The notes beneath the pieces were generated by a model. That model was not told the DNA's origin. It saw only the letters and a program-made list of their open reading frames with translations, and did no database searches. The translations under genes and the position numbers were made by a program. Below are positions 1-46,405 of a stretch of 64,000 nucleotides of DNA, piece by piece. This stretch comes from Minisyncoccia bacterium (GTDB lineage Bacteria; Patescibacteriota; Minisyncoccia; Phycocordibacterales; UBA918). Location: NCBI GenBank assembly GCA_041742075.1, contig JBGSJJ010000010.1:165-64164 (forward strand). Reading direction: 5' to 3'. Every line of letters begins with the position of its first letter. The first letter of the stretch is position 1.

Positions 1-166
1 CCGTCACACATTACTGTGCACGCTGCGGTGCCAAACATTTGGTCTCTTTTTGGTTTGGTTTGGATTATCTCAGTCATTTCTGACCGAGAAGGTAACTATG
101 GCTAGGCTGCTTACCCTATAATCGTTCCAATCCGTCGAGTGCACTATTTATTAGATAGCGTACTCG
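1..166 (-). other. Insertion (probable intron) interrupting 23S just after the conserved ...ACTATAA.CG.TCTAAGGT block (about E. coli position 1930); runs off the window start
   Basis: After CTAAGGT (plus 167-173, read as reverse complement) the universally conserved AGCGAAATTCCTTGTCGGGTAAGTTCCGACC continuation is absent and unrelated sequence follows. Confidence 0.45.
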
Positions 167-374
167 ACCTTAGAACGATTATAGTTATCGCTGACATTTA
201 CCGGGGCTTATATAGTCCAGCAATACAATCCGAAGATCATATCACCCCCCATATTTAACCTTCCGGCATAGGTCAGGCGTCACCCCCTATACATCCTCTT
301 GCGAGTTCGCAGGGAGCTGTGTTTTTGGTAAACAGTCGGCAGGAAATCTTTCGCTGCGGCCCAATACACCACTT

Positions 375-625
375 TAGCCTCAACCCCGTGGGGGATGTGG
401 CCAAAGAGCTTGTTCACGGTGACGATGAGACGAGCTTGAGTTCGTCGTCACCGTAATTGATCATCATGACTCTCGTAGTCCTGTGTCTCTTATCGTAGTA
501 GAAGAGGTCCAGTCTGACGAGCTTGCCGTCAATCCTTACTTCTTCTACACTCGTGACTTCACCAACCATGAGGTCGATCATGTGTATTTTCTCCCACTTT
601 GTTGAGGACAAAGTGGTGTATTGGG
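375..625 (-). other. About 220-250 nt insertion/expansion segment in 23S between the 1650-like and 1770-like conserved blocks. It is closed by a 17-bp inverted repeat (cccaatacaccacttt) and contains a 55-codon ORF (414..581) with a GGGAGA Shine-Dalgarno.
   Basis: The two conserved blocks are about 70 nt apart in E. coli but about 290 nt apart here. The inverted repeat lies at 371-390 and 609-625. The ORF has a GC3-rich codon pattern. Confidence 0.45.
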
Positions 626-1847
626 CAGACCTTATCCCTAAGTTACGGTCGCTTTTTTGCCGAGTTCCTTGAGGACCTCTCACTCGTTCGCCTTAGTCTT
701 CTCGACTCTACCACCTGTGTCGGTTTGCGGTACGGAATCAATACGTTTATGCTTAGAAGTTTTTCTCGGAAGCGTGCTCCCCACATTCGCTTGGCCGAAG
801 CCGCACGTTCAGACTCACCTCGGAGTAATGCTACGCGGATTTGCCTACGTAACCTCCTCAATGCTCCAGCTCCAATCCAATAAGAAGCTGTGGATACAAC
901 GCTCCGTCCCTCCATCGCAACGCATCAATGTGCAGGAATATTAACCTGCTATCCATCGAGTCCCCCTATCGGGATTCCCTTAGGACCGACTAACCCTCCG
1001 CTGATCACCATAGCGGAGGAAACCTCGGTATTTCGGCGGACGGGGGTCTCACCCGTCTTGCGGTTACTTGTGCCGGCATTCTCACTTCTGTACGCTCCAG
1101 GTCGGGTCTCCCCTCCCATTCATCGCAAACAGAACGCTCTCCTACCACTTATATCTTACGATACAAATCCGCAGTTTCGGTAATATGCTTGAGCCCCGAT
1201 CATCTTCGGCGCAAGGACTCTCGATCAGTGAGCTGTTACGCTTTCTTTAAAAGATGGCTGCTTCTAAGCCAACTTCCTGATTGTCAGAGAATCCTCACCT
1301 CCTCATTTTGCACTGAGCATATATTTAGGGACCTTAACTGGCGATCTGGGCTGTTTCCCTTTCGACCAATGGAGCTTCTCCCCCATAGTCTAACTGCCGC
1401 GCTGTGGCCTACTGGTATTCGGAGTTTGATAAGAGTAACGAGATTTCTCCCTGTTTACTCTTTCCAGTGCTCTACCCCCAGAGGGAACACGCGACGCCAA
1501 CCCAAAAGCTGTTTCGGAGAGAACCAGCTATTACGGAATTCGATAAGCTTTTCACTCCTTACCACAAGTCATCCGATAGTTTTGTACGGCTAACCGGTTC
1601 GGGCCTCCACGAAGTATTACCTTCGCTTCACCCTGCTCATGGCAAGCTCATCCCGCTTCGGGTCGTACCCCTGCCCTATATTCGCGCTATTCACGCTCGC
1701 TTTCACTGTGCCTCCGTGGGGTTACCACTTAGACAAAGGACAAAGGTACACTCGCCGGCTCATTCTTCAATAGGCACGCCGTCGCAGCTTGCGCCGCTCC
1801 GACTCCTTGTAGATGTATGGTTTCAGATCTATTTCACTCCCCTCTCC

Positions 1848-1893
<46 letters not shown>

Positions 1894-2118
1894 TTCAAGA
1901 ATATTTAGCCTTAGGAGTTAGTGCTCCCAGATTCATTCGAGCCATTCATGTCTCGAACTACTCAGGAACGGAATCAGGAGAGTTGTATACATTTCGAATA
2001 CAGGACTATTACCTTCTGGGGTCGAGCTTCCCAACTCGTTTTCCTATATATACATTTTGTAACTCTCTGCAACTAAATGCAGACTCCGCCCTACAACCCC
2101 GTACATGTAAACACGTAC

Positions 2119-2150
<32 letters not shown>

Positions 2151-3189
2151 TTCAGGGAATCGCAAGAACCTTCTTCCTGACTACAATGGCACACGTATTG
2201 CTACGTGTAGTGTAAGTCAGAAAGAAAGTTCCCGATTTTGCTTTCTATTCCTCCAGGTACTGAGATGTTTCACTTCCCTGGGTGAGCTCCGACGTACGTC
2301 GGTTACTACTGATAGTAGTAGAGTTTCCTCATTCGGACATTTCCGGTTATAACGGTTGATTGGCACCTTACCGGAACTTATCGCAGCCATTCCACGTCCT
2401 TCATCGCTTCTTGAAGCCTAGGCATCCACCATACACCCTTACATTCCTGTAAGGAATGTTGTACACCGCTTTCGCAGTAACTTTCATTCACCTACATAAT
2501 GCTGTACACCGCTGTACAATTTTTTGAGTGTTTTGTCATTCGTTCTAAAAAATACGTAATTAGAATCGAACAACGGTTTGTTTTGCTTGTTGTGTGTTGC
2601 GGGACGAAAAGACCCGGTACGAATACCTAAAATCTAAACCGCAACACACTACCTACCTGCGCACTGTCGATGTGCGCAGGATTTTTATGAGTTGCACACC
2701 TGCTCTATCCTAGAGAACAGATGTGCGAGTATGCAATTGTATATTTTTCAATACAACCATTCGTCACGAAACTAAACGCCAAAGCGTCAAGCTAGTTTAG
2801 GAGTCTGTATGCAAAGCATACAGACAATCTTCGCTCGGTTATACGGAAGCGAATACGCTTCCCTTATCATCACTCGAATAAAAAATGAAAGTAAACTTTA
2901 ATTTTTTACTCTTGCTCGATAAGGCACAGGCTTCGCTTGTGCAACCCTCGCTCAAAATGTCTGTCAAATAAACAATTGTTCCGTTGCAAATCTAGTACTT
3001 AAAAACCCGCGAATCGCGGGCGCACGAAGTTAATCCGTATTTCCGCGAAAACTAGGTGATTAAGGTGAAATGCATAAACAAGTGCTCGCTATTCTATAGG
3101 AAGTGAAAAATAAGTCAAGCGTCCTTACTGGATAGAACAGTAACTGATACTGATGGCAGGAAACCCGTAGTAGTTTCTGGCACATTTAA

Positions 3190-3440: not shown

Positions 3441-4352
3441 CTACTCACCACTCACGCGCCTACCAGCCTGTATACCTGTGATTTCACTTCTATGCTCTGC
3501 TTCATGAGCAAGAACTTCGCTATAGATAACCTTTACAATTATGTCTTCTGCCTTAACGGTGTAGTGTTCAAGCGTTACCTCAAGCTGACAGTCAGTATGC
3601 CACTGCTTCATAGTGAGTACCCGTAGAAATATTTTTTCCTTAGAGACAAGCGAGCCACAACTCGTGAGAAGTGCTTCCTTAAGTCTCTCTTCGAGCGAAG
3701 ACAACGGATGCATCGCTTCGTTCGGGAGAGAAAACGGAATAATGAGACAACGACTTTTTGTCTTACTGTAATTAATTACTTCACTGCCAATGAAGCGGGT
3801 GTTTGGAATGAAAAGCAAATTACCATCATCAGTCTTGATGGTGGTCGCCCTGAAAGAAATATTTATGATGGTACCGCGCGCTGTCTCCCCCACCTTCACG
3901 TAGTTTCCAATCCGATAATCCGGCGAAAACATAAGCCGGAAGCTATCCAAATAGTTTGAGATGTGATCTCTAAAGATAAGAACCAGGGCAACTGCTACCA
4001 AGCTAATTGAAGTCAAAAACTCTTGGAATGCTATGTCGAGTATGACAAGTGCACCGATAAATGTCACAAACACCGTCACGAGTTTTTCAAGTGAATCAGT
4101 GCCTAAAATAAAGTTGTCCCGGTCGCTGATAGCAAGCTTATTGCGGGTTCGGTACGAACTCACCATAAATGACCGTATGACACCGAGTATGAGTGCGGCA
4201 GACAGGTAGAGTTGGACTACCTCCCAAAACTCAATTGGTAAGTAGTTACCGAGTAGGTTGAAAGCCATAGCAAAGGTAACAGCTACGAGTATCAGTAACT
4301 GCACAAACAGCTTAAACTTTCGACGCGGACTGATGAGTAAAAAAGAATTCAT
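3441..4352 (-). CDS. mscS: Small-conductance mechanosensitive channel, MscS family
   Basis: N-terminal TM helices. Conserved MscS beta-domain motif GNYVKVGETARGTIINISFRATTIKTDDGNLLFIPNTRF. Confidence 0.85.
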   Translation of the reverse strand: MNSFLLISPRRKFKLFVQLLILVAVTFAMAFNLLGNYLPIEFWEVVQLYLSAALILGVIRSFMVSSYRTRNKLAISDRDNFILGTDSLEKLVTVFVTFIGALVILDIAFQEFLTSISLVAVALVLIFRDHISNYLDSFRLMFSPDYRIGNYVKVGETARGTIINISFRATTIKTDDGNLLFIPNTRFIGSEVINYSKTKSRCLIIPFSLPNEAMHPLSSLEERLKEALLTSCGSLVSKEKIFLRVLTMKQWHTDCQLEVTLEHYTVKAEDIIVKVIYSEVLAHEAEHRSEITGIQAGRRVSGE

Positions 4353-4494
4353 ACAATGAATACCATTGTACTACATCTACTCATGACCTATCGATATGGT
4401 CGGTGACCAGTAATTTACATATACCTGCAGACTTGCTAGTATCAAAACCAATTGCTCACCTGTTCCTTGTAAATAAATCCGAAGGAGGACCGTT

Positions 4495-5712
4495 ATGGAA
4501 GACACTACTGGTTATGTCGTCAGACTGCCCGATGGCAAGTATGTCACTATCCACCACACACCGCAGCATTGGTGGAATGAACCAAGACACGTCGGCTACA
4601 TTGCTCCCGAGTTGCTGGCTCCAGACCTTGACCAGCCGCGACAGGAAATGGTTGAAAGCGAGCTCGAAGAACTTCAGATCGCTATAGCTGCAGCCGGAGT
4701 GCGTGAACCCATCACGGTAACTTTGCGTCAGTGCGCACCGTGGATTCGCGTCGAACCACAGTACGAAAACCGACCGTTCGCAATCGTGAGCGGCCACCGA
4801 CGCCACCTGAGCGCAACGAGAGCTGGCGTCCCGGCGGTACCGGTTAGAGTCGTACTCTACGACAACGAGACGCAACACCGCGACGATGCGGTGTTGCTCA
4901 ATGGGCAACGTCACGACATGTCGCCTATGGATGAAGCCCGGGACATCAAGCGCCGACTGACGCTCGGTGAAAGACCAGAAGCTATTGCGCGCTCATACGG
5001 CAAGAACAACGTTTCGTGGGTGCATAGCCGAAACGCGCTCAACAACCTAGCTCCAGCACTCCAAGCACTGCTCAACCCAACGCTAACTCGAGAGAAGCAG
5101 CTGCCGGTTGTTGTGGCTATCAGGCTCGGCAGCATCAAGAAGCCCTCCCCCGCCAGCATCGCTGAATTCTGCGACGAGTACGACCTCACCCAGCCCAGAG
5201 AGCTCGGTGACACCGAAGAAGAGCTGGCACACACCATGCAACTCCTCATGTACGAAGTGATACAGGGACAGAAGATGACGGCCATCGTCGCGTGCCATTT
5301 CGTCGAGAATACTCGGCGAGCTACCGGGTCTGGAGCTCGTGCGACTCACAAGAGTGAGAAGTACGAGCCTCGCAAGCGTGTGGAGGCACTCCTCAACTAC
5401 CTCAAGTCAATATCCCAAGGACTGCCAACGACGTGGAGCGGCGCTGAGTTTACTCGTATCTGCGCTGGGCAGACGAGACTACAAATGGGTGAACACCTCG
5501 CTCTCGCCCTCGAGGCAGGAAAAAGCCTCGTCGAGATCATCGAGCACCTCGAAACAATCGAACGGAGCAAGCCTCACTTCGACGAGAGAATCACGGCGTT
5601 GCTGACTGCACCGGTTGCACCTGTACAGAAGTTCACACCGCGCGCAAGAACTATGGCTGACATGCCTCCCGAGGAGGTGGCAGCTATCAAGGCTCGCCTC
5701 GGCCTCAGGTAA
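4495..5712 (+). CDS. ParB/Srx-like nuclease N-terminal domain protein (405 aa), GC-rich foreign-looking gene
   Basis: FAIVSGHRRHLSATRAGVPAVPVRVV matches the ParB N-domain GxRR box. SD ggagga sits before the ATG. About 60% GC versus about 40% in the flanks. Confidence 0.75.
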   Translation: MEDTTGYVVRLPDGKYVTIHHTPQHWWNEPRHVGYIAPELLAPDLDQPRQEMVESELEELQIAIAAAGVREPITVTLRQCAPWIRVEPQYENRPFAIVSGHRRHLSATRAGVPAVPVRVVLYDNETQHRDDAVLLNGQRHDMSPMDEARDIKRRLTLGERPEAIARSYGKNNVSWVHSRNALNNLAPALQALLNPTLTREKQLPVVVAIRLGSIKKPSPASIAEFCDEYDLTQPRELGDTEEELAHTMQLLMYEVIQGQKMTAIVACHFVENTRRATGSGARATHKSEKYEPRKRVEALLNYLKSISQGLPTTWSGAEFTRICAGQTRLQMGEHLALALEAGKSLVEIIEHLETIERSKPHFDERITALLTAPVAPVQKFTPRARTMADMPPEEVAAIKARLGLR

Positions 5713-5726
5713 GCGGCACAAAGCAA

Positions 5727-5765
5727 GGCGTGGACGACTCATAGTCGTCCACGCCGCTTTTTATT
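5727..5765 (+). terminator. Rho-independent terminator: ggcgtggacgact/agtcgtccacgcc stem plus gcttttta
   Basis: 13-bp perfect stem 5727-5755 with a T-run 5758-5765. Confidence 0.8.
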
Positions 5766-5776
5766 TATACTTGTTT

Positions 5777-5963
5777 AACGACGAGGTAGTTCGTCTTTAA
5801 CGCCGATTTTATTGAATGAAGAAATGAGCGCCAGCGATTATTCTGAATTTATGTCCTGATTTTTTCTTCCCAGAGAAAATCACTGGACCAAGACAAGTAA
5901 AGCTATATTAATGAATCCAATAGGGTTACCGACGCGGTAGTTCGTCTTTAACCCCGATTTTAT
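5777..5963. repeat. Imperfect direct repeat (34 nt, 2 mismatches; 5779-5812 and 5930-5963) that duplicates the last 11 codons plus stop of the HTH-regulator gene
   Basis: Both copies translate on the minus strand to KIGVKDELPRR-stop. All differences are synonymous third-position changes (GGG/GGC, CCG/CCT, CGG/CGT). Confidence 0.7.
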
Positions 5964-6606
5964 CTGTCAAAATCTGATGTGGGTAGTCAAACACATCACG
6001 CGTGAGTTTGTCGTACATACCAACTCGGTACTTCAAGTCCTCTGACTCCATCGCCGAATAACGGATTTCTACTCCAAGCTCTGACTCAAGGGAACGTATT
6101 GCAGTTTCGACTTTTGATTGTGATAGTTTTTTTGTAGCGAGGAGTAAATCAAGCCGTTGGTCAAAGTCACGTAAGAAAATTCCTGACACCACCACAAAAT
6201 CAACTTTACCGAGCTTGCGTAAATGGTTCATCACGGTCTTCCCATTTATCGGCGCAGTTTCAAACAGGAATGTTTGAAGGGCCTGGAGTTCTGGAAAACT
6301 TTTATCAAGCGCGTAGCCTTGGGCTTTTCGCTTTTTTTCGGTGTCTGGCTCAGTGATGATGATTTGCTTCTTCTTAATCACGCCGGCTCGTTCGAGCGCA
6401 TTCATCTCCGTCCGGGCAGTTCGGCGCACCAACTTTGCCCGACGAGAAATTTCGTCAAAGGTGAAATCTTTTGATGGGTTAAAGAGAAAAAACCGCAGAA
6501 GTTTAACTCGGGCTTGGCTTCCAAACAGGATTGTAAGCGGATCGGCTACCATACAAGAAATAGTGTCTGGATTATAGCATGCAGAGGTTTTCCCCAGTCT
6601 GGACAC
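5926..6606 (-). CDS. Winged-helix (MarR/ArsR-like) transcriptional regulator with an uncharacterised C-terminal domain
   Basis: FTFDEISRRAKLVRRTARTEMNALERAGVIKK is a typical wHTH. The true start may be the internal Met (MVADPL...). Confidence 0.55.
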   Translation of the reverse strand: MSRLGKTSACYNPDTISCMVADPLTILFGSQARVKLLRFFLFNPSKDFTFDEISRRAKLVRRTARTEMNALERAGVIKKKQIIITEPDTEKKRKAQGYALDKSFPELQALQTFLFETAPINGKTVMNHLRKLGKVDFVVVSGIFLRDFDQRLDLLLATKKLSQSKVETAIRSLESELGVEIRYSAMESEDLKYRVGMYDKLTRDVFDYPHQILTDKIGVKDELPRR

Positions 6607-9127: not shown

Positions 9128-10453
9128 CTACGGTTGAGTGTTTGGCTGGTACTGAAGATTAATAAGTAACTCAGAAATTATTGATTTTACTTGATGAAGT
9201 TTTAAATCAGACTCAAGGCCTTGCAATAAAAACAATATTTCGTTTAACTGTTCAACCTGAGTACTAGTACTTTTAGTTGGAATATCAGATAGTATCTTGC
9301 GGAGTGCTAACTCCTGAACAGGATCTATTTCGGATTGAGAAACTAGAATATGTAGAATATTAGTAATATCTCTAATATAGTCTCTTTCTTCAATCCAGCT
9401 TATTTCGCTATCTAGTAAACCATCTCCGTTCCAATCATACTGTAATTTATTTAAATGTATTTTAGAAGTATCATCAATTGAAATTTCTATATCAATCTTT
9501 GTTTCAGGAAAAATAAGCAAAGATTCAATTTTGCTTAACACTGTATCAGTCTCACTTATAAATTTTATATCTGTAATACCTAACTTCTTACCAAGAATTT
9601 GGTATCTAAAAGGTGGTCTGTCAAATCCTGCATTAATAATTCCTTTTTCAACATAGTAATTTTGCTTATTTGAAAGCCACTTATCAGTATGACCTTTTGC
9701 GGTTACTTGATTTAAAAATCTTGGTGCTTGCAGATTGTTTTTATTATCGATCACAAGAATTTCAACAAGTTCATGGCTGGCAGTCAATCGCGACGACTTA
9801 TAACTATTTCTTGAAAGACTAAATTCATCTTCACCAATCCGTGGAATTAAAATCGTTGGGTCCTTCAAACTCTCAACGGTGTTTAAGTACTTATGTAATT
9901 TTATATCAGAAATTAAATCAATTGCTTTCACTGATCCAAAAAGTAAAAGTGGGGTAAGTAAAGTAAATACAATTGTTACAATAAACGAATCAAATCGTTC
10001 CCAATTATCTCTTTTTGAATATTTTAAAAAAATTAACTCAAAATATAGCTGCGATAAAACCAAAAACACAACTGTGAATGGTATAAATATGGGCCACAAA
10101 TAAAATGATGAACATCCTAAGAATCCTAAGCAAAATTCTAACTCTACAAAACCAAATGCATTGAGTGGAATAAGAAATATCGAGACATGTTTAACAAATT
10201 TCAAATAACAAACTCTAAGTTTGATTTTATTCTTAAAATATAAATAGACACTTGAAAAAACCCATACTAGTAAAGTTATAAATATTGATAAAAGAAATAA
10301 ACCACTACGGATTATCTCACAAGTACTTTCACTTAAAATAGGGTTATGTCCAAAGCATAGTATATATCTTCCAGCTGCTTCTATATAATAAATTAATGCA
10401 AAAAATATTAATAATGATGTATAACTTGCATAGATTATAAATTTATCAATCAT
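9128..10453 (-). CDS. Polytopic membrane protein with a C-terminal soluble domain containing a DWNGDGLLD Ca-binding/dockerin-like motif
   Basis: About 6 N-terminal TM helices. Very AT-rich (about 30% GC). DxNGDGxxD motif near the C-terminus. Confidence 0.55.
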   Translation of the reverse strand: MIDKFIIYASYTSLLIFFALIYYIEAAGRYILCFGHNPILSESTCEIIRSGLFLLSIFITLLVWVFSSVYLYFKNKIKLRVCYLKFVKHVSIFLIPLNAFGFVELEFCLGFLGCSSFYLWPIFIPFTVVFLVLSQLYFELIFLKYSKRDNWERFDSFIVTIVFTLLTPLLLFGSVKAIDLISDIKLHKYLNTVESLKDPTILIPRIGEDEFSLSRNSYKSSRLTASHELVEILVIDNKNNLQAPRFLNQVTAKGHTDKWLSNKQNYYVEKGIINAGFDRPPFRYQILGKKLGITDIKFISETDTVLSKIESLLIFPETKIDIEISIDDTSKIHLNKLQYDWNGDGLLDSEISWIEERDYIRDITNILHILVSQSEIDPVQELALRKILSDIPTKSTSTQVEQLNEILFLLQGLESDLKLHQVKSIISELLINLQYQPNTQP

Positions 10454-10456
10454 TTT

Positions 10457-10906
10457 CTAACTATTTTTCACACTCCTTTTTGTTTTTTGTCTCCAATCCA
10501 AAAAAAGATGCACCCATACAAACATAAATGTGACCGCGCCTAAGAAATACATTCCAAGTTGGGCCATGTTAGCGCGAGTAAACTGCATTACGTTTGATGA
10601 ATAGACAGAAATATCAATAACTAGAAAGTAGGTGGCGATAATAACTAGTGGAGCTACGTAGAAAAGCCATTTTCTAAAAATATGTGCTGGCACGAGAAGC
10701 AGACCTCCAAGAATAACTGAGAGTATAAACCCACTAAAATATAATGGGTCATATACCTTATCGTAAAAATTATAGTAACAGTAAATGTCTTCATCAAGAC
10801 AATAATTACTATAGTTATAATTTAAATATAGAGTGGCATTTGCTGTAAAAAGAAGCAGGATAACATTTAAATATTTGTATATATTTATTTTTTTTAAATA
10901 ATTCAT
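10457..10906 (-). CDS. Small membrane protein (4 TM)
   Basis: Hydrophobic ORF of 149 aa in the AT-rich island, co-directional and tightly spaced with its neighbours. Confidence 0.45.
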   Translation of the reverse strand: MNYLKKINIYKYLNVILLLFTANATLYLNYNYSNYCLDEDIYCYYNFYDKVYDPLYFSGFILSVILGGLLLVPAHIFRKWLFYVAPLVIIATYFLVIDISVYSSNVMQFTRANMAQLGMYFLGAVTFMFVWVHLFLDWRQKTKRSVKNS

Positions 10907-10915
10907 ACTATTACT

Positions 10916-13441
10916 TTAATTGCTAATCGACTTAATAATTTTTTCTAAAGCTGTGGCTTCTGTTTGGATAAATAGTCTCTTTTGAGTATACAGCTTCACT
11001 AACTGGGAAATCTGTTTTAATAACAAATCTTCTAGTTTGCCTAAAATTGGTAATTTAGCTTTTCGTTTAGAGGCTTCTTGCGCTGCATTTATTAATTCTA
11101 GAAGAACTTTTTCAGGAGCACGACTTAAATTGGTATCTTTAACAGCCTGCTTTAAGTCAGCGTATGTATAAACAATAGGCATTCCATCTATAGTAGTCTC
11201 TCTGTCTATTACCCCATCTCCGTTTAAATCAGTGCTCAAAGTTGAATACCCATCAGAATCTTTTGAGTAGGTTGCAATCATCTGTGGTGTGACTGTTGCA
11301 TTTACAAGTTGATGCTCTAATTCTTGTTCGTCACTACTGCCAAGCTTTGCAACAGTGAGGGTATAGTTACCACTTTCTTCACCGTACAATTTAACTGTAC
11401 GCTTAGTTTCTGCAGGAGTAACAAGGTACTTGGTATCGGCAAACTCAAAGTACTGGCTACCAGGTATTTCTTCCTTGATAACCTTAATACCCTCTTCTAT
11501 AACAACTCCACTTATATTACCCTCTTCGTCTTCGGCAACTATCCGCACCGGTGAATCGATAATCTCTACTTCGTATTCATCAGCAAACGTAATTTCGTTG
11601 ATACTTATAAACTGAATAGTATCTGGGGTTGTTGAGCTTATCATTTTCGCTAAAAGAATTTGGACTTGTAGAATTTCCATCATGTTGTAGTGTTCGTACT
11701 TCTTTTCTCGATTTATCTTCCTAAGCTCCCCAAGATCCAAAAAAAACTTCTCCTTTTCACCTTCATACGCATCTGCAGAACGTTGTACTACCGTCTGATC
11801 ACCATACTTTGTTAACAGGGCATAAGCCTTAAGGATTCTATTTGGTGTACAAGTGTTCTGTCCACCGACACTAATACAATTTTCACCTTCTAAAATCTCT
11901 CGGTACTCAATTGCTTTTGGAGTCGGCAAGCCAGTCCCTATTACTTCGATCACCTTAATGCCATCTGGAGCGAGCCAGTTATCAAGTTTATTTCGATTTT
12001 CAAGCGCTTCGGTAAAGAGAGTCTCATTTACCTTGGCTGGTGTTGAAATAGGATCTGAAAGGCTTCGGGCTGGACCCACAGAGCCAGTTAGAAAGTTTTT
12101 ATATTGATCAAAGCTGGAAATGTTGCCGCTAAAAGCTAGCTTGTATGGCGAGGTAGTGAACGAACTGTCAAATTGAATGATGGGTTCTTGACTCGAGGAC
12201 AGGTATTTTTCTGCTGGCAAAAGACCGTAAGCACCTGGCATATTATTTATTACTTCTCGAGCCGTACTGTCATTGAGTATTAAGCCATACAACAAATCCT
12301 GATCATATGCATGAAGGATGCTCCCAATTGATTTTGGTGTACCAAGTTGAGGTACAGCAACCATGATAAATGTATCAATTAAATCCGCTTTCCCTATACG
12401 TTCAAGCTCTGAAATAAGCGCCTTGCCTACCAATCCTCCATTTGAATGCCCAATTATAGTCACCTTACCAGTATGGGAAGCTGATGCTAATCGCTCCACT
12501 TCTGATACAGCACTTTTTATTTCATTTTCATACTGAGTACCATTTTCCACTATATCGTATACATCAAAACGCCAGTCATACGCAAAAGCTGTGTAGTCTT
12601 TAATTGGTTCTGGTAGAAATTTCAATCCGTGTAAGAATTGTAAAAATCCTTTATATACCGTACCTAATCCAACCACTTCATCAATAACGTCTCTGGTATA
12701 TACATCGTTTATACTTTCTCCAGTTAAAGTATGAGCAAGTTGTTGCACATCTTGATTAAAAGTTGGTGTCCATAGTTGATCCTCAAAGCCAAACAAGCCA
12801 TCTTTATATAACCGACTAGCTTGAATCCCCGGCAAGAAAAGTACACTAGAAGCACCAGTTGGTTCTGGTACTACCTCCTCCCTCGTAACAGTAAAGTTTA
12901 TAACTCTCACTTGAACATATGACGGATAATAGGCATACGCGGTTGGAATGATATAGGCTAGAAATTTCTCAAAATAATTCTGGTGTTCATAGTTAAGAAT
13001 TGGTGGTTCTTCATAGGTAAATACTGCAGAGTAAGTACCTGAAGGTAATGATTCAAGAGACGTTGTTGATGGTGGACCCCAATATGATAACGAGTAATCT
13101 TGTCCGTCTTTTTTAAATAAACTAAAGGAATCTCCCCACGAGGATGGCTGCATGACACTGGCTACTTCAGTGGGAAGTTCCGATTCAGGAATAATAATTT
13201 CAGCACCCTCGGTAACTGGAATCCCAGCAATACTGAGTGACGCTGAAAATCCCACATTTTCATCTTCATTAAATGGATTATCACAATCTTCAATTTCGGT
13301 GATTTCTTGTTCGGAACCAGGACCATAAAATGATTCTGGAATGATTATATTTCCGCATGGTGGAGTAGTCTGAGCGTAAGAAAAAGCGAAAGGAACAAAT
13401 AGGAAGAGTGCGGATAGAAGAAAATTCGTGAAAACCTTCAT
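10916..13441 (-). CDS. Secreted alpha/beta-hydrolase (lipase/esterase-like, GHSNGG nucleophile elbow) with a C-terminal DLNGDGVID dockerin-like motif, 841 aa
   Basis: Signal peptide MKVFTNFLLSALFLFVPFAFSYAQT. The VTIIGHSNGGLVGKALI GxSxG motif. Low GC. Confidence 0.7.
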   Translation of the reverse strand: MKVFTNFLLSALFLFVPFAFSYAQTTPPCGNIIIPESFYGPGSEQEITEIEDCDNPFNEDENVGFSASLSIAGIPVTEGAEIIIPESELPTEVASVMQPSSWGDSFSLFKKDGQDYSLSYWGPPSTTSLESLPSGTYSAVFTYEEPPILNYEHQNYFEKFLAYIIPTAYAYYPSYVQVRVINFTVTREEVVPEPTGASSVLFLPGIQASRLYKDGLFGFEDQLWTPTFNQDVQQLAHTLTGESINDVYTRDVIDEVVGLGTVYKGFLQFLHGLKFLPEPIKDYTAFAYDWRFDVYDIVENGTQYENEIKSAVSEVERLASASHTGKVTIIGHSNGGLVGKALISELERIGKADLIDTFIMVAVPQLGTPKSIGSILHAYDQDLLYGLILNDSTAREVINNMPGAYGLLPAEKYLSSSQEPIIQFDSSFTTSPYKLAFSGNISSFDQYKNFLTGSVGPARSLSDPISTPAKVNETLFTEALENRNKLDNWLAPDGIKVIEVIGTGLPTPKAIEYREILEGENCISVGGQNTCTPNRILKAYALLTKYGDQTVVQRSADAYEGEKEKFFLDLGELRKINREKKYEHYNMMEILQVQILLAKMISSTTPDTIQFISINEITFADEYEVEIIDSPVRIVAEDEEGNISGVVIEEGIKVIKEEIPGSQYFEFADTKYLVTPAETKRTVKLYGEESGNYTLTVAKLGSSDEQELEHQLVNATVTPQMIATYSKDSDGYSTLSTDLNGDGVIDRETTIDGMPIVYTYADLKQAVKDTNLSRAPEKVLLELINAAQEASKRKAKLPILGKLEDLLLKQISQLVKLYTQKRLFIQTEATALEKIIKSISN

Positions 13442-13569
13442 AGAGCTTTAGCTAACTAGATTATATTACTTAGGGTACTCCCACTTGAATAATCACACAA
13501 ATACCATTTTGCATAACTTTTTACCCAACTTTACCCAATTAAGAACCCCGACTACCTAGTTGCCTATAT

Positions 13570-14340
13570 AAAACCCTTTACAAAAGGCCACCCTTCGCTA
13601 GATTGATAACTTTAGGTTTGAAAGCTAGCCATTCAAATAATTCATTTTGCATACTTGCTTCAGTTACAAAATATTCTGGAAACAACGATGTGTTTAAAAT
13701 CACTTGTTCTGGGCGTGCGCTACCAAAATAATGAGCCAAGCTAGAGAATCGGTAATCCTTCGCATATAAATACGCTTTTTCAAAATCAGCTATTCCCTGC
13801 TCTTTCCAATCTGATTGAATTAATTTCACTGGATTGAGATGGATGTAGGCGTATAAGTACTTTAAATATTGGTCAGTATCAGCCCACTCAGCTTTAAATT
13901 TTCCCTCAAACAAAGTACCTGACCGTAGATATTTTTTATTAAAATACATTGAATAACTTGTGCACAGTTTATTCATATACTTTGTGACTCCTCCCTCAAT
14001 AACAGGAGTCAATAATAAGTGAAAATGATTTGGCATGAGGCAGTACGCTCCAATAGCAACCAACTCGTCTCCTCGTTCATACTCATATACATTTATTTCG
14101 TCTCTTTTAATTTCACGAAGATCTATAGAATTTTTAGAATTTGTTAGATAGAGTAAGTTTACAAAACGTTCATAATCTTTTGCATCTTGAAAGATTGTTC
14201 TTTTATCTACACCACGATTATAAACGTGATAGAACTCATTATGAGAAAAGCTGAGCTTTCGTGTGGTCATTAATTTATTTTAGCATGACTACAAAGGGCC
14301 ACCCTTCGCAAAGTTGCGAAGGGTGGCCCTTTGTTAATCT
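13570..14340 (-). mobile_element. Putative IS200-like unit: transposase gene bounded by a 42-nt perfect palindrome (14291-14332, caaagggccacccttcgcaa/ttgcgaagggtggccctttg) and a partial copy of the same motif (13583-13598)
   Basis: Subterminal hairpins are characteristic of IS200/IS605 ends. The unit size, about 770 bp, fits. Confidence 0.45.
13578..14270 (-). CDS. IS200/IS605-family Y1 HUH transposase / RAYT-like protein (230 aa)
   Basis: The N-terminal YHVYNRG motif, the HUH motif PNHFHLLL and a downstream Tyr-containing region fit PF01797-type transposases. Confidence 0.7.
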   Translation of the reverse strand: MTTRKLSFSHNEFYHVYNRGVDKRTIFQDAKDYERFVNLLYLTNSKNSIDLREIKRDEINVYEYERGDELVAIGAYCLMPNHFHLLLTPVIEGGVTKYMNKLCTSYSMYFNKKYLRSGTLFEGKFKAEWADTDQYLKYLYAYIHLNPVKLIQSDWKEQGIADFEKAYLYAKDYRFSSLAHYFGSARPEQVILNTSLFPEYFVTEASMQNELFEWLAFKPKVINLAKGGLL

Positions 14341-24150: not shown

Positions 24151-24369
24151 TCATTTGCGAAAGTACTTCCGTGCTTCACTGATGACAATTGGCACAACTT
24201 CTGGCGCTACAACAGCGACCAGCACGAGCACTGCCACTAGACTAGCCAGAGCAAAGGTGAGGAATATGAGATAGATATTCCAACCTGCCTCATAGGCTTC
24301 GAAGGCCATCGTTATCGCCACGGCGAACGAGACGATACGGATGAGGAGTATAGACTCAAGATCAGTCAT
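24151..24369 (-). CDS. Small membrane protein (72 aa)
   Basis: Two TM helices. Overlaps the start of the next gene by 4 nt. Confidence 0.4.
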   Translation of the reverse strand: MTDLESILLIRIVSFAVAITMAFEAYEAGWNIYLIFLTFALASLVAVLVLVAVVAPEVVPIVISEARKYFRK

Positions 24370-24995
24370 TTTACGTTCAACTTTCTCTGTTCAAGTTTCT
24401 TGGAGCTCCAAGGTGAGATTAAACTACCCCGGTACCCCATTTGTTTCGGCACGAGATTGTACCGCCGAATCATGCGCTCTTTATGCGCTTCTCGCTTCTT
24501 TAAGCTTCCCCAGGCTGGGTCCTTTTCGAAGTACTGGTGACTACTGGCCTCTAGGATAAGTACCCTCCGGTAACCCAGAGTACGCGCAATGGCTTCCGCA
24601 CACTCAAGGAAGAATCGGTCGGCGTCTTTGATCCCGAGCTTGCTCAGGTACACCCCTTTCACGCCCTGCATCTGGACCACATGCATCCCGTACGGGGTGC
24701 AATCAAGACCAATGTTGCCAATAATCTTGCCCTGGTGATGAAGGACAACGGTCAAGTTGCCACCGGCCTTTTGCACAACTCCATCCGCGACTAGATCGGT
24801 GTGGTATTTGGTCGCCGAGACCGAATGAACGAATTCGAGCTCGCTCAGCGCTACCCACTTTTCAGTCCGCTTGGCGAACTTTTGAGCGAACCTTTGCCGA
24901 AACCAATGCGGGATGGTGAACTGGTAAACTTTAAAGAGAAAAAAGAAGAAAGTAACGGTCACGATGACCGCGTACCAGTAGAGTACAGTGGCCAT
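24366..24995 (-). CDS. Membrane-anchored hypothetical protein (209 aa)
   Basis: N-terminal TM helix and a soluble domain with no recognised motif. Confidence 0.45.
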   Translation of the reverse strand: MATVLYWYAVIVTVTFFFFLFKVYQFTIPHWFRQRFAQKFAKRTEKWVALSELEFVHSVSATKYHTDLVADGVVQKAGGNLTVVLHHQGKIIGNIGLDCTPYGMHVVQMQGVKGVYLSKLGIKDADRFFLECAEAIARTLGYRRVLILEASSHQYFEKDPAWGSLKKREAHKERMIRRYNLVPKQMGYRGSLISPWSSKKLEQRKLNVK

Positions 24996-45037: not shown

Positions 45038-46204
45038 CTACTCTACCCTTGAAATAAGCCCGCGTTTCGGGGTTTCCCCACTGCCAGCCACAGTAAAGGT
45101 TTCGTGACCGAGCACCTGCCCGCGTCCGGTCTCCACACTACAACGCCAGGTACCTGGCTGATGACTCGTTACAAAACTATAGCCTCGATACCCACCGTCT
45201 CCTCCACCGAAGATCGGGTACTCTACTTTGGCATGCTCTACCCAGTCTCCATCAGCATTTTTGTATTCCCAGGTATGGAAGATTTTGGTATTAAGTTTGG
45301 TAGGCGCAAACACACTCGCAAAGCAGTACACGCTTGGTGCCTGACTCGGATAAAAGGTGGTATCAGAATTCGTAAACGGCTTCCACCAGACTGGATCAAC
45401 CCACTTGAGTTGGTACGTATTATTTTCAAACTTGACCACACTGTGGTACACCCCGAGTTCCTTGAGTGAGAGTGGTATGGGAGGGATGATGTTGGCAAAA
45501 TAGAGAAAATTAAAACCCACAAAAATTGCTCCTAAAGTAAGTACGACTGCCCGTGTCTGCAACTCCATAAAACGCGGTATCACTCGGTAGAGTAATTGGA
45601 TAAACCAGTACATGAGAGTGAGCGCGATAAATCCACTCCCCACAAACACCCAGGCTCCCATATAGCCCGTGACTACCGGCACCAACAGTACGATGTATGA
45701 CATCAGACCAACAAACAAAATCGCCAGGTTGTAAATCAGTCGTGACGCACGGTCTTTAATGACTTCGTTTCCAATAATAGCCGCCAGTATCATGAGGAGA
45801 AATGGCCAGCTCTCAAGCCACGCACCGCTTCGACCATAAAAAATAAGCATACCGGAAAGCAACCCACCAAAAGAAAATTGCACCAACAGAGGTAGGTACC
45901 TCCGTCCATAGTGAGAAAGCTTTTCTGGAAGTTTTCCTGCCACGCTGGCGTACAAAAGTAGGATAGACACCATTGAAAGCAACACGTAGGAAGCAAGAAT
46001 AAAATTATCAAACGCTTCGTCAACACGATTCAGCGTAAGATTGTCAACCAAAAATCCAAAAAAGAACGACAGACTCATCCAATGGCGTCGTAGCTGAGCT
46101 AAACGGTTTGAAGACTTTTTAGGTGTTTCTTCTTCTGTAGTAAGAACCGGTGTATCCATAGTTGTCATTGTACTAGAAAGTACCCAATAAAAAAAAGGCC
46201 GCAC
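45038..46204 (-). CDS. Polytopic membrane protein with a C-terminal extracytoplasmic beta-rich domain
   Basis: About 8 TM helices, then a soluble C-terminus. Confidence 0.55.
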   Translation of the reverse strand: MRPFFYWVLSSTMTTMDTPVLTTEEETPKKSSNRLAQLRRHWMSLSFFFGFLVDNLTLNRVDEAFDNFILASYVLLSMVSILLLYASVAGKLPEKLSHYGRRYLPLLVQFSFGGLLSGMLIFYGRSGAWLESWPFLLMILAAIIGNEVIKDRASRLIYNLAILFVGLMSYIVLLVPVVTGYMGAWVFVGSGFIALTLMYWFIQLLYRVIPRFMELQTRAVVLTLGAIFVGFNFLYFANIIPPIPLSLKELGVYHSVVKFENNTYQLKWVDPVWWKPFTNSDTTFYPSQAPSVYCFASVFAPTKLNTKIFHTWEYKNADGDWVEHAKVEYPIFGGGDGGYRGYSFVTSHQPGTWRCSVETGRGQVLGHETFTVAGSGETPKRGLISRVE

Positions 46205-46405
46205 GCAAGCGCACGGCCGAAGTTTAGGGAGGAAACGCCCGTAGGGCGTATATGATGCACCGCATCACGTCTGTACCATATACCAATTTTAATTCCTTGG
46301 CAAGAAAATAGACCACCGTGGTCACCCTACTCAAAAAGGTATACAGGGAACGGGACGGGCGAGACAAAGTCTCGCCCGTCCCGTTCCAGCCTTTGCGCCC
46401 GCTCT

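Follow-up and report, generated by a model that had tools for sequence, protein, structure and literature searches.

A Paceibacteria-specific family of orphan ParB-type proteins, probably nucleotide-switched DNA-binding proteins

A 64,000-nucleotide stretch of the genome of a Minisyncoccia bacterium (GenBank assembly GCA_041742075.1, contig JBGSJJ010000010.1, positions 165 to 64,164 of the forward strand), here called the window, carries at 4495-5712 on the plus strand an open reading frame (ORF) for a ParB-like protein of 405 amino acids (aa), P0001. A preliminary description of this DNA had taken the gene for an isolated, GC-rich island encoding a ParB/Srx-like nuclease, of a sort frequent in mobile elements and in phage defence or anti-defence systems. 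The analysis reported here leads elsewhere: the product is probably a nucleotide-switched DNA-binding protein, neither a nuclease nor the product of a recently imported mobile or defence gene, and it belongs to a distinct, small and fast-evolving family confined to the Paceibacteria, which are ultra-small Patescibacteria. The reading that accounts best for the evidence, and that is held here with a reasonable if incomplete degree of confidence, is that of an orphan ParB-type clamp, switched by a nucleoside triphosphate (NTP), that binds DNA in a role other than segregation, resembling those of Noc, KorB or VirB, that dimerises through its C-terminal part and that possibly regulates its own synthesis at a motif in its leader.

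The architecture of the protein, with coordinates in the window, is as follows.

4495-4596, plus strand: family-specific N-terminal extension, residues 1-34, a beta-hairpin (V.LPDG..V..) followed by a WW motif (family alignment and AlphaFold2 model).
4597-4884, plus strand: ParB-CTPase fold, residues 35-130 (Pfam PF02195; residue alignment to Caulobacter ParB, B. subtilis Spo0J and Thermus Spo0J).
4885-5109, plus strand: Box III, N136..R139.D141 ("LLNxxRxDL"), and helix-turn-helix (HTH) domain, residues 131-205 (PDB profile, Foldseek).
5110-5709, plus strand: all-helical C-terminal domain, residues 206-405 (predicted local distance difference test score, pLDDT, of 87 when modelled alone).

The sole Pfam domain is ParB_N (PF02195) at residues 35-125 (E 1e-8, 35.6 bits against a cut-off of 26.3 bits), a positive profile search that upholds the earlier placing of the protein in the ParB/Srx superfamily, and the GHRR box noticed at that time is present as Box II, G100-H101-R102-R103 (nt 4792-4803). 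The NCBIfam model TIGR00180 (parB_part) scored 55.4 bits, just under its cut-off of 58.45 bits; that for Noc (TIGR04285) reached 41.9 bits against a cut-off of 315, PRTRC-ParB and RepB were also far under theirs, and in PHROGs the N-terminal part alone matched ParB-like partition proteins. A profile search of PDB sequences went further: Caulobacter ParB, B. subtilis Spo0J, Thermus Spo0J, Myxococcus ParB, Noc and KorB all aligned within residues 33-205, and for ParB, Noc and KorB the match ran to residues ~197-206. The boxes fall in register with those of ParB: Box I (Q47-P48-R49) reads QPR, GHRR stands against GERR, and LLN..R.DL against ENLQR.DL. Across 47 members of the family Q47, P48, R49, G100, R102, R103 and N136 are invariant or nearly so. 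Family-specific features are the N-terminal extension, which takes the position of canonical ParB's ParA-binding peptide, and an insertion of ~10 residues in the N-terminal domain with an invariant P82-W83.

The fold agrees with the sequence. An AlphaFold2 model of the 405-aa protein, a predicted rather than a solved structure, was built from the 47-member alignment with a mean pLDDT of 90.6, and Foldseek matched it to ParB, Noc and KorB bound to cytidine tri- or diphosphate (CTP or CDP), and also to Spo0J, at E 2e-10 to 1e-6 and a probability of 1.00, whereas sulfiredoxin (Srx), the serine kinase SerK and SbnI were matched weakly (E 0.01-0.04). Because the best fold matches are to ParB, Noc and KorB and those to Srx, SerK and SbnI are far weaker, the predicted structure places the protein with the clamp type that carries an HTH domain and not with the Srx or "nuclease" type. 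The designation as a nuclease is thus not supported, the best matches by both sequence and fold being CTP-binding clamps (ParB/Spo0J, Noc, KorB) with the HTH included, and neither an HNH nor any other nuclease domain being found in the protein. The C-terminal domain (residues 206-405) has no match in Pfam or among PDB sequences, the Pfam matches include no ParB C-terminal dimerisation family, and a fold search with this domain alone gave no match (best E 4.4 in the PDB and 0.33 among the viral folds of BFVD). The preliminary description had allotted some 250 C-terminal residues to a region without recognisable domain; that holds for only ~200 of them, since residues 131-205 are the ParB-type HTH.

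A different use of the same fold has to be weighed at this point, namely that the protein binds ATP or GTP or is enzymatic, like SerK, Srx and SbnI, with the C-terminal domain as its effector and DNA binding secondary or lost. The departure of Box II from GERR to GHRR and the weak Foldseek matches to the three enzymes would suit such a protein, and some orphan ParB folds bind ATP or GTP, as reported in the sections of the orphan-ParB survey of Kaljevic et al. (PNAS 2025, PMC12704722) that are drawn on here. The HTH and Box III are, however, well conserved in the family, whereas according to those sections (PMC12704722) non-canonical orphans often lose Box III, and the three enzymes match 6-8 orders of magnitude less well than ParB, Noc and KorB do, so that an ATP-, GTP- or enzyme-type protein is improbable.

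For the orphan clamp, homology suggests how nucleotide binding, clamp closure, choice of DNA target and cellular role might fit together. The N-terminal ParB-CTPase fold would bind a nucleoside triphosphate, most likely CTP, and dimerise, the HTH domain would recognise a specific DNA site, and the clamp would close on DNA in the manner of ParB, Noc and KorB, with the helical C-terminal domain assumed to hold the dimer. A role in gene regulation or nucleoid organisation, as in Noc, KorB or VirB, appears more likely than ParA-driven segregation, because the protein has no ParA-binding peptide and the gene has no parA neighbour. In Box II the replacement of glutamate by histidine falls at a residue needed for CTP hydrolysis in canonical ParB, so the kinetics of the switch or its nucleotide preference may differ. 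The motif in the leader of the gene, described below, would be a candidate autoregulatory operator.

Architecture, motif conservation, genomic context, evolutionary rate and base composition could all be observed directly across the family, once its members had been found. Word-indexed homologue searches are nearly blind to them, returning for the single protein only itself, one relative of 34% identity and one canonical ParB, and for the 47-member profile only 8 matches; an exhaustive HMMER scan of 1.84 billion representatives (clusters at 50% identity) was therefore needed. This recovered 77 representatives at E < 1e-30 that align end to end and are ~370-400 aa long, a few with an extra C-terminal module, and below them came generic ParBs that match just the first ~200 positions. 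The members that bear a name, from metagenome-assembled genomes (MAGs) of Minisyncoccia or Paceibacterota, are annotated either as "ParB/RepB/Spo0J family partition protein" or as "ParB N-terminal domain-containing protein". With every other member P0001 shares 25-36% identity, and it is otherwise known just from two Logan assemblies of the same organism. The ParB-N fold is the best conserved part, with a mean pairwise identity of 44%, followed by the HTH region (37%), the N-terminal extension (30%) and the C-terminal domain (24%). Within this last domain lie a helix of 31 residues (328-358) and a tail specific to a subfamily (..QKFTPR..M.PEE.AAIKARLG) that is common to P0001, P0040, P0044, P0045, P0050, P0066 and a fragment at locus L003. 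A subset of members, the window's protein not among them, carries after the helical domain an extra conserved module of ~50 aa (..Y..LWE.G.L.FQ..G..KP..LP.L.EA..); these are P0019, P0024, P0025, P0026, P0031, P0032, P0034, P0037, P0043, P0047, P0048, P0055 and P0065.

Genomic context was compared at 13 independent family loci. The gene stands alone in all 13, as a rule has a promoter region and a terminator to itself, and is surrounded by housekeeping genes: divergent from an ATP-synthase operon, divergent from rpsL-rpsG-fusA, or beside genes for tRNA synthetases and for transporters of the major facilitator superfamily (MFS) or the ATP-binding cassette (ABC) type. None of the 13 has an adjacent parA, and only at L045 does a CbiA/ParA-like gene occur, unlinked, 2.5 kb away. 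The ParA-binding motif (L/F/I)G(K/R)G(L/F/I), in the pattern used by Kaljevic et al. (PMC12704722, in the sections cited), is found in 0 of 68 members, P0001 included, and the 64-kb window holds no second ParB and no ParA-type Walker box. A scan of the window with the canonical parS consensus (TGTTNCACGTGAAACA, up to 3 mismatches), which by its nature does not reach divergent parS, found only 4083-4098, once per strand, or 2 matches against 2.5 expected.

These observations bear on whether the protein could be a highly diverged chromosomal segregation ParB, working with an unlinked ParA or with SMC and binding parS-like sites elsewhere on the chromosome. The gene is chromosomal, since the window begins within a 23S rRNA gene and further on carries rplL, rplJ, ftsK and recA. 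The three CTP-binding boxes, the ParB-type HTH, the TIGR00180 score only just below threshold and the name "ParB/RepB/Spo0J family partition protein" given by database annotators all accord with a segregation protein, as does a tblastn search with a canonical ParB (P0003) that found only family genes, and no canonical ParB, in a small sample of 824 kb of Paceibacteria DNA. Such a protein is nonetheless unlikely here: besides the missing ParA-binding motif and adjacent parA, a close relative (L010) has no such gene at the syntenic site and most relatives lack it, its sequence changes far more quickly than those of its housekeeping neighbours, ~77 clusters at 50% identity among 1.84 billion representatives are fewer than a core gene of so diverse a class should give, and the window has no parS-like site above chance.

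The pattern of inheritance is best followed through the genes on either side. The ParB-like gene lies between a gene for an MscS-type channel (3441-4352, minus strand, PF00924) and a winged-HTH-like "regulator" gene (5926-6606, minus strand; 226 aa, with weak winged-HTH matches), a position that the preliminary description had given correctly, down to the second copy of the regulator's 3' end at 5775-5812. The closest relatives of the neighbouring genes are in MAGs labelled Kaiserbacteria, Paceibacterota, Minisyncoccia or Patescibacteria. At L050, where the 23S rRNA gene is 93% and the regulator C-terminus 90% identical, a ParB-like gene occupies the same place in the same orientation and is followed by a homologous terminator, yet the proteins are only 33% identical. 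L003 (regulator 84% identical) has a ParB-like fragment of 44% identity that shares the C-terminal tail, L008 (regulator 76%) has a member from another subclade, and L049 has a member one gene away; at L010 (regulator 85%) the regulator stands directly next to mscS, with no ParB-like gene. A check of neighbouring genomes for presence or absence, as had been proposed, thus identifies an accessory gene, and of 42 species-representative loci only 2 have a family member beside the regulator. The difference in rate is plain at the syntenic loci L065 and L067 (rpsL, ParB-like gene, CYTH), where the ParB-like proteins are 45% identical and S12, S7, EF-G and CYTH are 92%, 87%, 90% and 63% identical. 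In a neighbour-joining tree members that share a locus group together, and the tree is otherwise star-like. From these comparisons the gene is read here as an accessory one of patchy distribution, which would be mostly inherited vertically within sublineages, often lost, and several times faster in its evolution than its neighbours. It had been supposed that a vertically inherited chromosomal ParB, paired with a parA elsewhere, would tell against a mobile gene; within sublineages the gene does appear to be passed on largely by vertical descent, but a parA partner was not seen.

The regulator itself is conserved, at ~208-226 aa. In most of 42 Patescibacteria species representatives (loci L003-L044) it follows rplJ-rplL on the same strand, and the DNA downstream of it is highly variable across genomes, consisting of mechanosensitive (MS) channel genes of two families, the ParB-like gene, or other genes. 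Proximity of the ParB-like gene to mechanosensitive-channel genes recurs within the sublineage (L049, L050, L010 and 3441-4352 of the window) in three arrangements, the channels being of different families, MS_channel_2nd in the window and MS_channel_1st_1 in L049 and L050. This proximity is probably local synteny with rearrangements and not a functional pairing, because members elsewhere have no channel neighbour.

The base composition of the gene, on which much of the case for an island had been built, calls for a separate account. The preliminary description had contrasted a gene of 60% GC with surroundings of 40%; the gene is indeed the GC-richest 1218-bp stretch of the window (z = 2.8; other genes 51-53%), but its true GC content is 57.2% (63% at third codon positions, GC3), while the window as a whole has 45.4%, mscS 43.8% and the regulator 45.7%, an excess of 12 points in GC and 18 in GC3 over the window, the baseline being these 64 kb of genome. 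With the window's codon preferences the protein would give 51.5% GC, the highest expected value among window genes, because it is rich in R, P, A and H. Amino-acid composition thus accounts for ~5 points of the excess and synonymous codons for ~6 (+5.9), the synonymous part (z = 2.3) equalling that of the most extreme ordinary gene of the window, at 24366-24995. At each of the 13 family loci the gene is richer in GC than the DNA around it, the difference ranging from +0.4 to +12 points, and the excess persists in pairs of loci where the gene is syntenic yet just 45% identical. Because the excess is family-wide and about half of it here stems from amino acids, the compositional island is largely a trait of the family, whose genes are intrinsically richer in GC than their hosts, and is not proof of recent transfer.

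There remains the original proposal, a recently acquired single-gene island encoding a ParB/Srx-like nuclease of a mobile element or of phage defence or anti-defence. It can draw on the GC content, the highest of any window gene, with synonymous-codon GC at the top of the host range, on the variable presence among relatives, with regulator and mscS adjoining at L010 without the ParB-like gene, on L048, the only family locus beside an IS200-type transposase gene, an excisionase-like HTH_17 gene and a HicA toxin gene, and on the frequent linkage of orphan ParBs in general to mobile elements (PMC12704722, in the sections cited). Much else is difficult to reconcile with it. The protein has no match to PADLOC defence models at E <= 1, and tblastn against 50,697 phage and 72,556 plasmid records gave none either; the window locus has neither an integrase nor an att site nor partner genes, and the 13 loci are uniformly solitary and mostly in housekeeping surroundings. 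The same site is occupied in several relatives despite deep divergence, the GC excess recurs in 13 of 13 loci and is here about half due to amino-acid composition, and the best structural relatives are DNA clamps with an HTH. The sole direct repeat (5775-5812 and 5926-5963) lies entirely downstream of the gene, around a different element (L010, L050). Recent acquisition as a mobile or defence nuclease is therefore very unlikely. The repeats were also considered as att sites bounding the ParB-like gene and rejected, both copies being on one side of it and the arrangement existing without the gene in L010.

Elsewhere in the window, at 9128-13441 and 13578-14270 on the minus strand, lies a stretch that is an acquired-island candidate of a more conventional kind. 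It is low in GC (29-39% against 45%), adjoins an IS200-type Y1 transposase gene, and holds two ORFs, of 441 and 149 aa, to which no Pfam family corresponds, besides the gene of an LCAT/lipase-like protein of 841 aa.

The ParB-like gene is a self-contained monocistronic unit, with a promoter-like site, a candidate leader motif, a Shine-Dalgarno (SD) sequence and a terminator.

4414-4442, plus strand: promoter-like site of sigma-70 type, TTTACA-17 nt-TAGTAT, extended by TG (9 of 12 matches to the consensus).
4459-4473, plus strand: leader motif CCTGTTCCTTGTAAA, with its core TGTTCCTTG at 4461-4469, 34 nt 5' of the start codon.
4484-4488, plus strand: Shine-Dalgarno sequence GGAGG, 6 nt 5' of the ATG, read off the sequence.
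5727-5755, plus strand: intrinsic terminator, a 13-bp stem (9 G-C pairs) with a 3-nt loop and a T run (-27.7 kcal/mol).

The SD sequence and the strong terminator bear out the earlier view of a single-gene unit, and the terminator has a homologous hairpin after the ParB-like gene of L050, 5721-5807 of the window being 77% identical to 11214-11300 there. The promoter-like site at 4414-4442 is a consensus match alone, the count of such sites in the region being not above that in shuffles. The case for the leader motif consists of a degenerate 9-mer count, an identity over 22 nt and a partly successful prospective test. Of the first 9 family loci, 6 have TGTTCYTY[GT] on the coding strand between -34 and -56, where the background rate is 6.8e-5 per nt; L051 and L055, whose proteins are 42% identical and which have no other detectable DNA similarity, share an identical 22-mer, CAGCCTGTTCTTCGACAGGTTT, at the motif; and a position weight matrix trained on the first sites gave p = 0.006, 0.05, 0.09 and 0.95 at 4 loci fetched later (Fisher's combined p ~0.007 by the present authors' own calculation). 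An unbiased enumeration of 11-mers in 9 upstream regions showed no clear excess (5 of 9, against 3-5 in shuffles), copies of the motif elsewhere in the window are not above chance, and a search of metagenome contigs with the exact 20-mer AGCCTGTTCTTCGACAGGTT gave 7 matches, none by a family gene and most without intergenic features, which is uninformative on the motif. The comparisons lend moderate support to a candidate operator or 5'-untranslated-region element that would travel with the gene family.

The repeated regulator 3' end belongs to a different feature altogether, lying downstream of the terminator.

5775-5812, no strand assigned: second copy of the regulator's last 38 nt, 35 of 38 identical to the first copy at 5926-5963.
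5804-5900, plus strand: two-hairpin structured multi-copy element of ~95 nt (covariance model R1).

The 38-nt repeats enclose an insert of 113 nt whose core, 5804-5900, is the two-hairpin element. A covariance model made from four copies found 7 strong copies (E < 1e-11) in 5 Paceibacteria genomes, together with weaker or partial ones; besides that of the window, the strong copies are at L010 (8088-8184 and 10037-10133), L021 (15043-15137), L005 (17547-17639), L009 (15154-15250) and L007 (2926-3024). In their alignment 98.5% of cells are paired and 15 pairs have changed on both sides, which 0 of 500 shuffles reach, and slid controls collapse; Rfam contains no match. L010 has the element at the same site, with its own regulator 3' end duplicated (39 of 40 identical) and no ParB-like gene, whereas L050 has the ParB-like gene and neither the element nor the duplication, so the duplication is uninformative on the arrival of the ParB-like gene. 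The repeat copies are 92-97% identical within a genome (window, L010) and orthologous copies are 23/36 (64%) identical between genomes, a combination that implies gene conversion or independent insertions; other copies of the element lack such flanking duplications. The element may be a small mobile or gene-converting element, or an undescribed non-coding RNA, and the Y1 transposase near 9128-14270 could mobilise such hairpin elements. Two other origins of the repeat were tried and set aside. In a template and variable repeat of the diversity-generating retroelement type the fit is poor, the repeats being just 38 nt long with mismatches of G to C or T and not at adenines, and no reverse transcriptase occurs among the annotated genes or the ORFs beside the repeat; a tandem duplication of 151 bp is at odds with a similarity confined to 38 nt.

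A bolder proposal, quite unlikely as a whole, combines the fast evolution of the family with this element. The protein would be a Paceibacteria-specific NTP-switched clamp whose C-terminal domain recruits an effector and whose rapid change comes from conflict or co-evolution, and, separately, the structured element could be a new small mobile or gene-converting RNA or DNA element. The speed of change would then reflect, for example, silencing of invading DNA or a race of the "centromere-drive" kind with the protein's own binding sites, and the family, if this were true, would add to the ParB switch proteins a branch with a new function, in organisms of minimal genome.

Further features of the window stand apart from these subjects. 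The partial 23S rRNA gene at 1-2452 (minus strand) spans 2452 nt and covers model positions 1-2007, leaving ~445 nt extra (insertions or expansion segments); the 23S region of L050 holds LAGLIDADG and GIY-YIG homing-endonuclease ORFs, and there is no 16S gene upstream of the 23S 5' end in the window. At 46182-46254 (minus strand), just upstream of the gene at 45038-46204, lies a match to the Rfam family suhB/mmgR (RF00519; 58.8 bits against a gathering score of 41), a family known from alphaproteobacteria and unexpected in a Patescibacteria genome.

Several points weigh against the orphan clamp as pictured above. The part given to the C-terminal domain in holding the dimer is an assumption, and nucleotide specificity in ParB folds is not predictable from sequence or AlphaFold, as stated in the sections cited of PMC12704722. 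No DNA target was found in the window, where both parS and copies of the leader motif occur at chance. The motif fails in some loci (p = 0.95 at L065), and in the window it has no palindromic form and is in part complementary to the SD sequence, so that a role at the RNA level is possible. Finally, some horizontal movement of the gene within the Paceibacteria would be compatible with its synonymous-codon GC excess (z = 2.3) and its patchy distribution.

The CTP switches of ParB type have only recently been recognised as a class of molecular switch, and the roles of most orphans are still to be found. The present family offers a compact, well-defined example, combining an intact nucleotide pocket, in which the hydrolysis residue has naturally changed from glutamate to histidine, with a ParB-type HTH and a C-terminal domain that is modelled with confidence yet has no match, in the Patescibacteria, a host group whose chromosome biology is almost unknown. 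It also illustrates that a GC peak confined to one gene need not mean recent transfer and may, as here, be a property of a family. Practical value is modest unless biochemistry reveals a new activity.

Among known systems, canonical ParB and Spo0J (PDB 6SDK, 6T1F/7BM8, 1VZ0, 7BNK) share the nucleotide-binding and HTH fold with P0001 at Foldseek E ~1e-10 and 20-27% identity. P0001 differs from them in lacking a ParA-binding peptide, a parA and a nearby parS, in scoring below the TIGR00180 cut-off, in having histidine for the hydrolysis glutamate of Box II, in the insertion of ~10 residues in the N-terminal domain, and in a helical C-terminal domain of ~200 aa that has no match to the short ParB dimerisation domain. 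Comparable fold matches (E ~1e-9) are to Noc (PDB 7NFU, 7OL9) and KorB, the RK2 repressor (8QA8/8QA9), ParB paralogues that act as CTP-dependent clamps in nucleoid organisation or transcription control without activating ParA. The protein is nevertheless not a Noc by score (41.9 against 315 bits for TIGR04285), the C-terminal domains of Noc and KorB are unrelated to its own, and, unlike korB, its gene has no small co-transcribed neighbour, hence no KorA-like partner by position; a likeness of role to Noc and KorB would be one of analogy. The closest parallel is the class of orphan ParBs with unannotated extra domains described by Kaljevic et al. (PMC12704722), within whose sections consulted here the Paceibacteria family was not found singled out. 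As set out there, orphan ParBs also have a ParB-CTPase fold, no parA neighbour, no ParA-binding motif and rapid diversification, and they too are long proteins that Pfam sees as single-domain, their extra domains being absent from that database. In contrast to those orphans, the Paceibacteria family keeps Box III and the ParB-type HTH, and its genes are chromosomal, among housekeeping genes, and not on plasmids or prophages; its own are the lineage restriction, the N-terminal extension, the P-W insertion, the GHRR box and the helical C-terminal domain. It is thus a lineage-restricted variant of the orphan-ParB class, new in detail and not surprising in kind.

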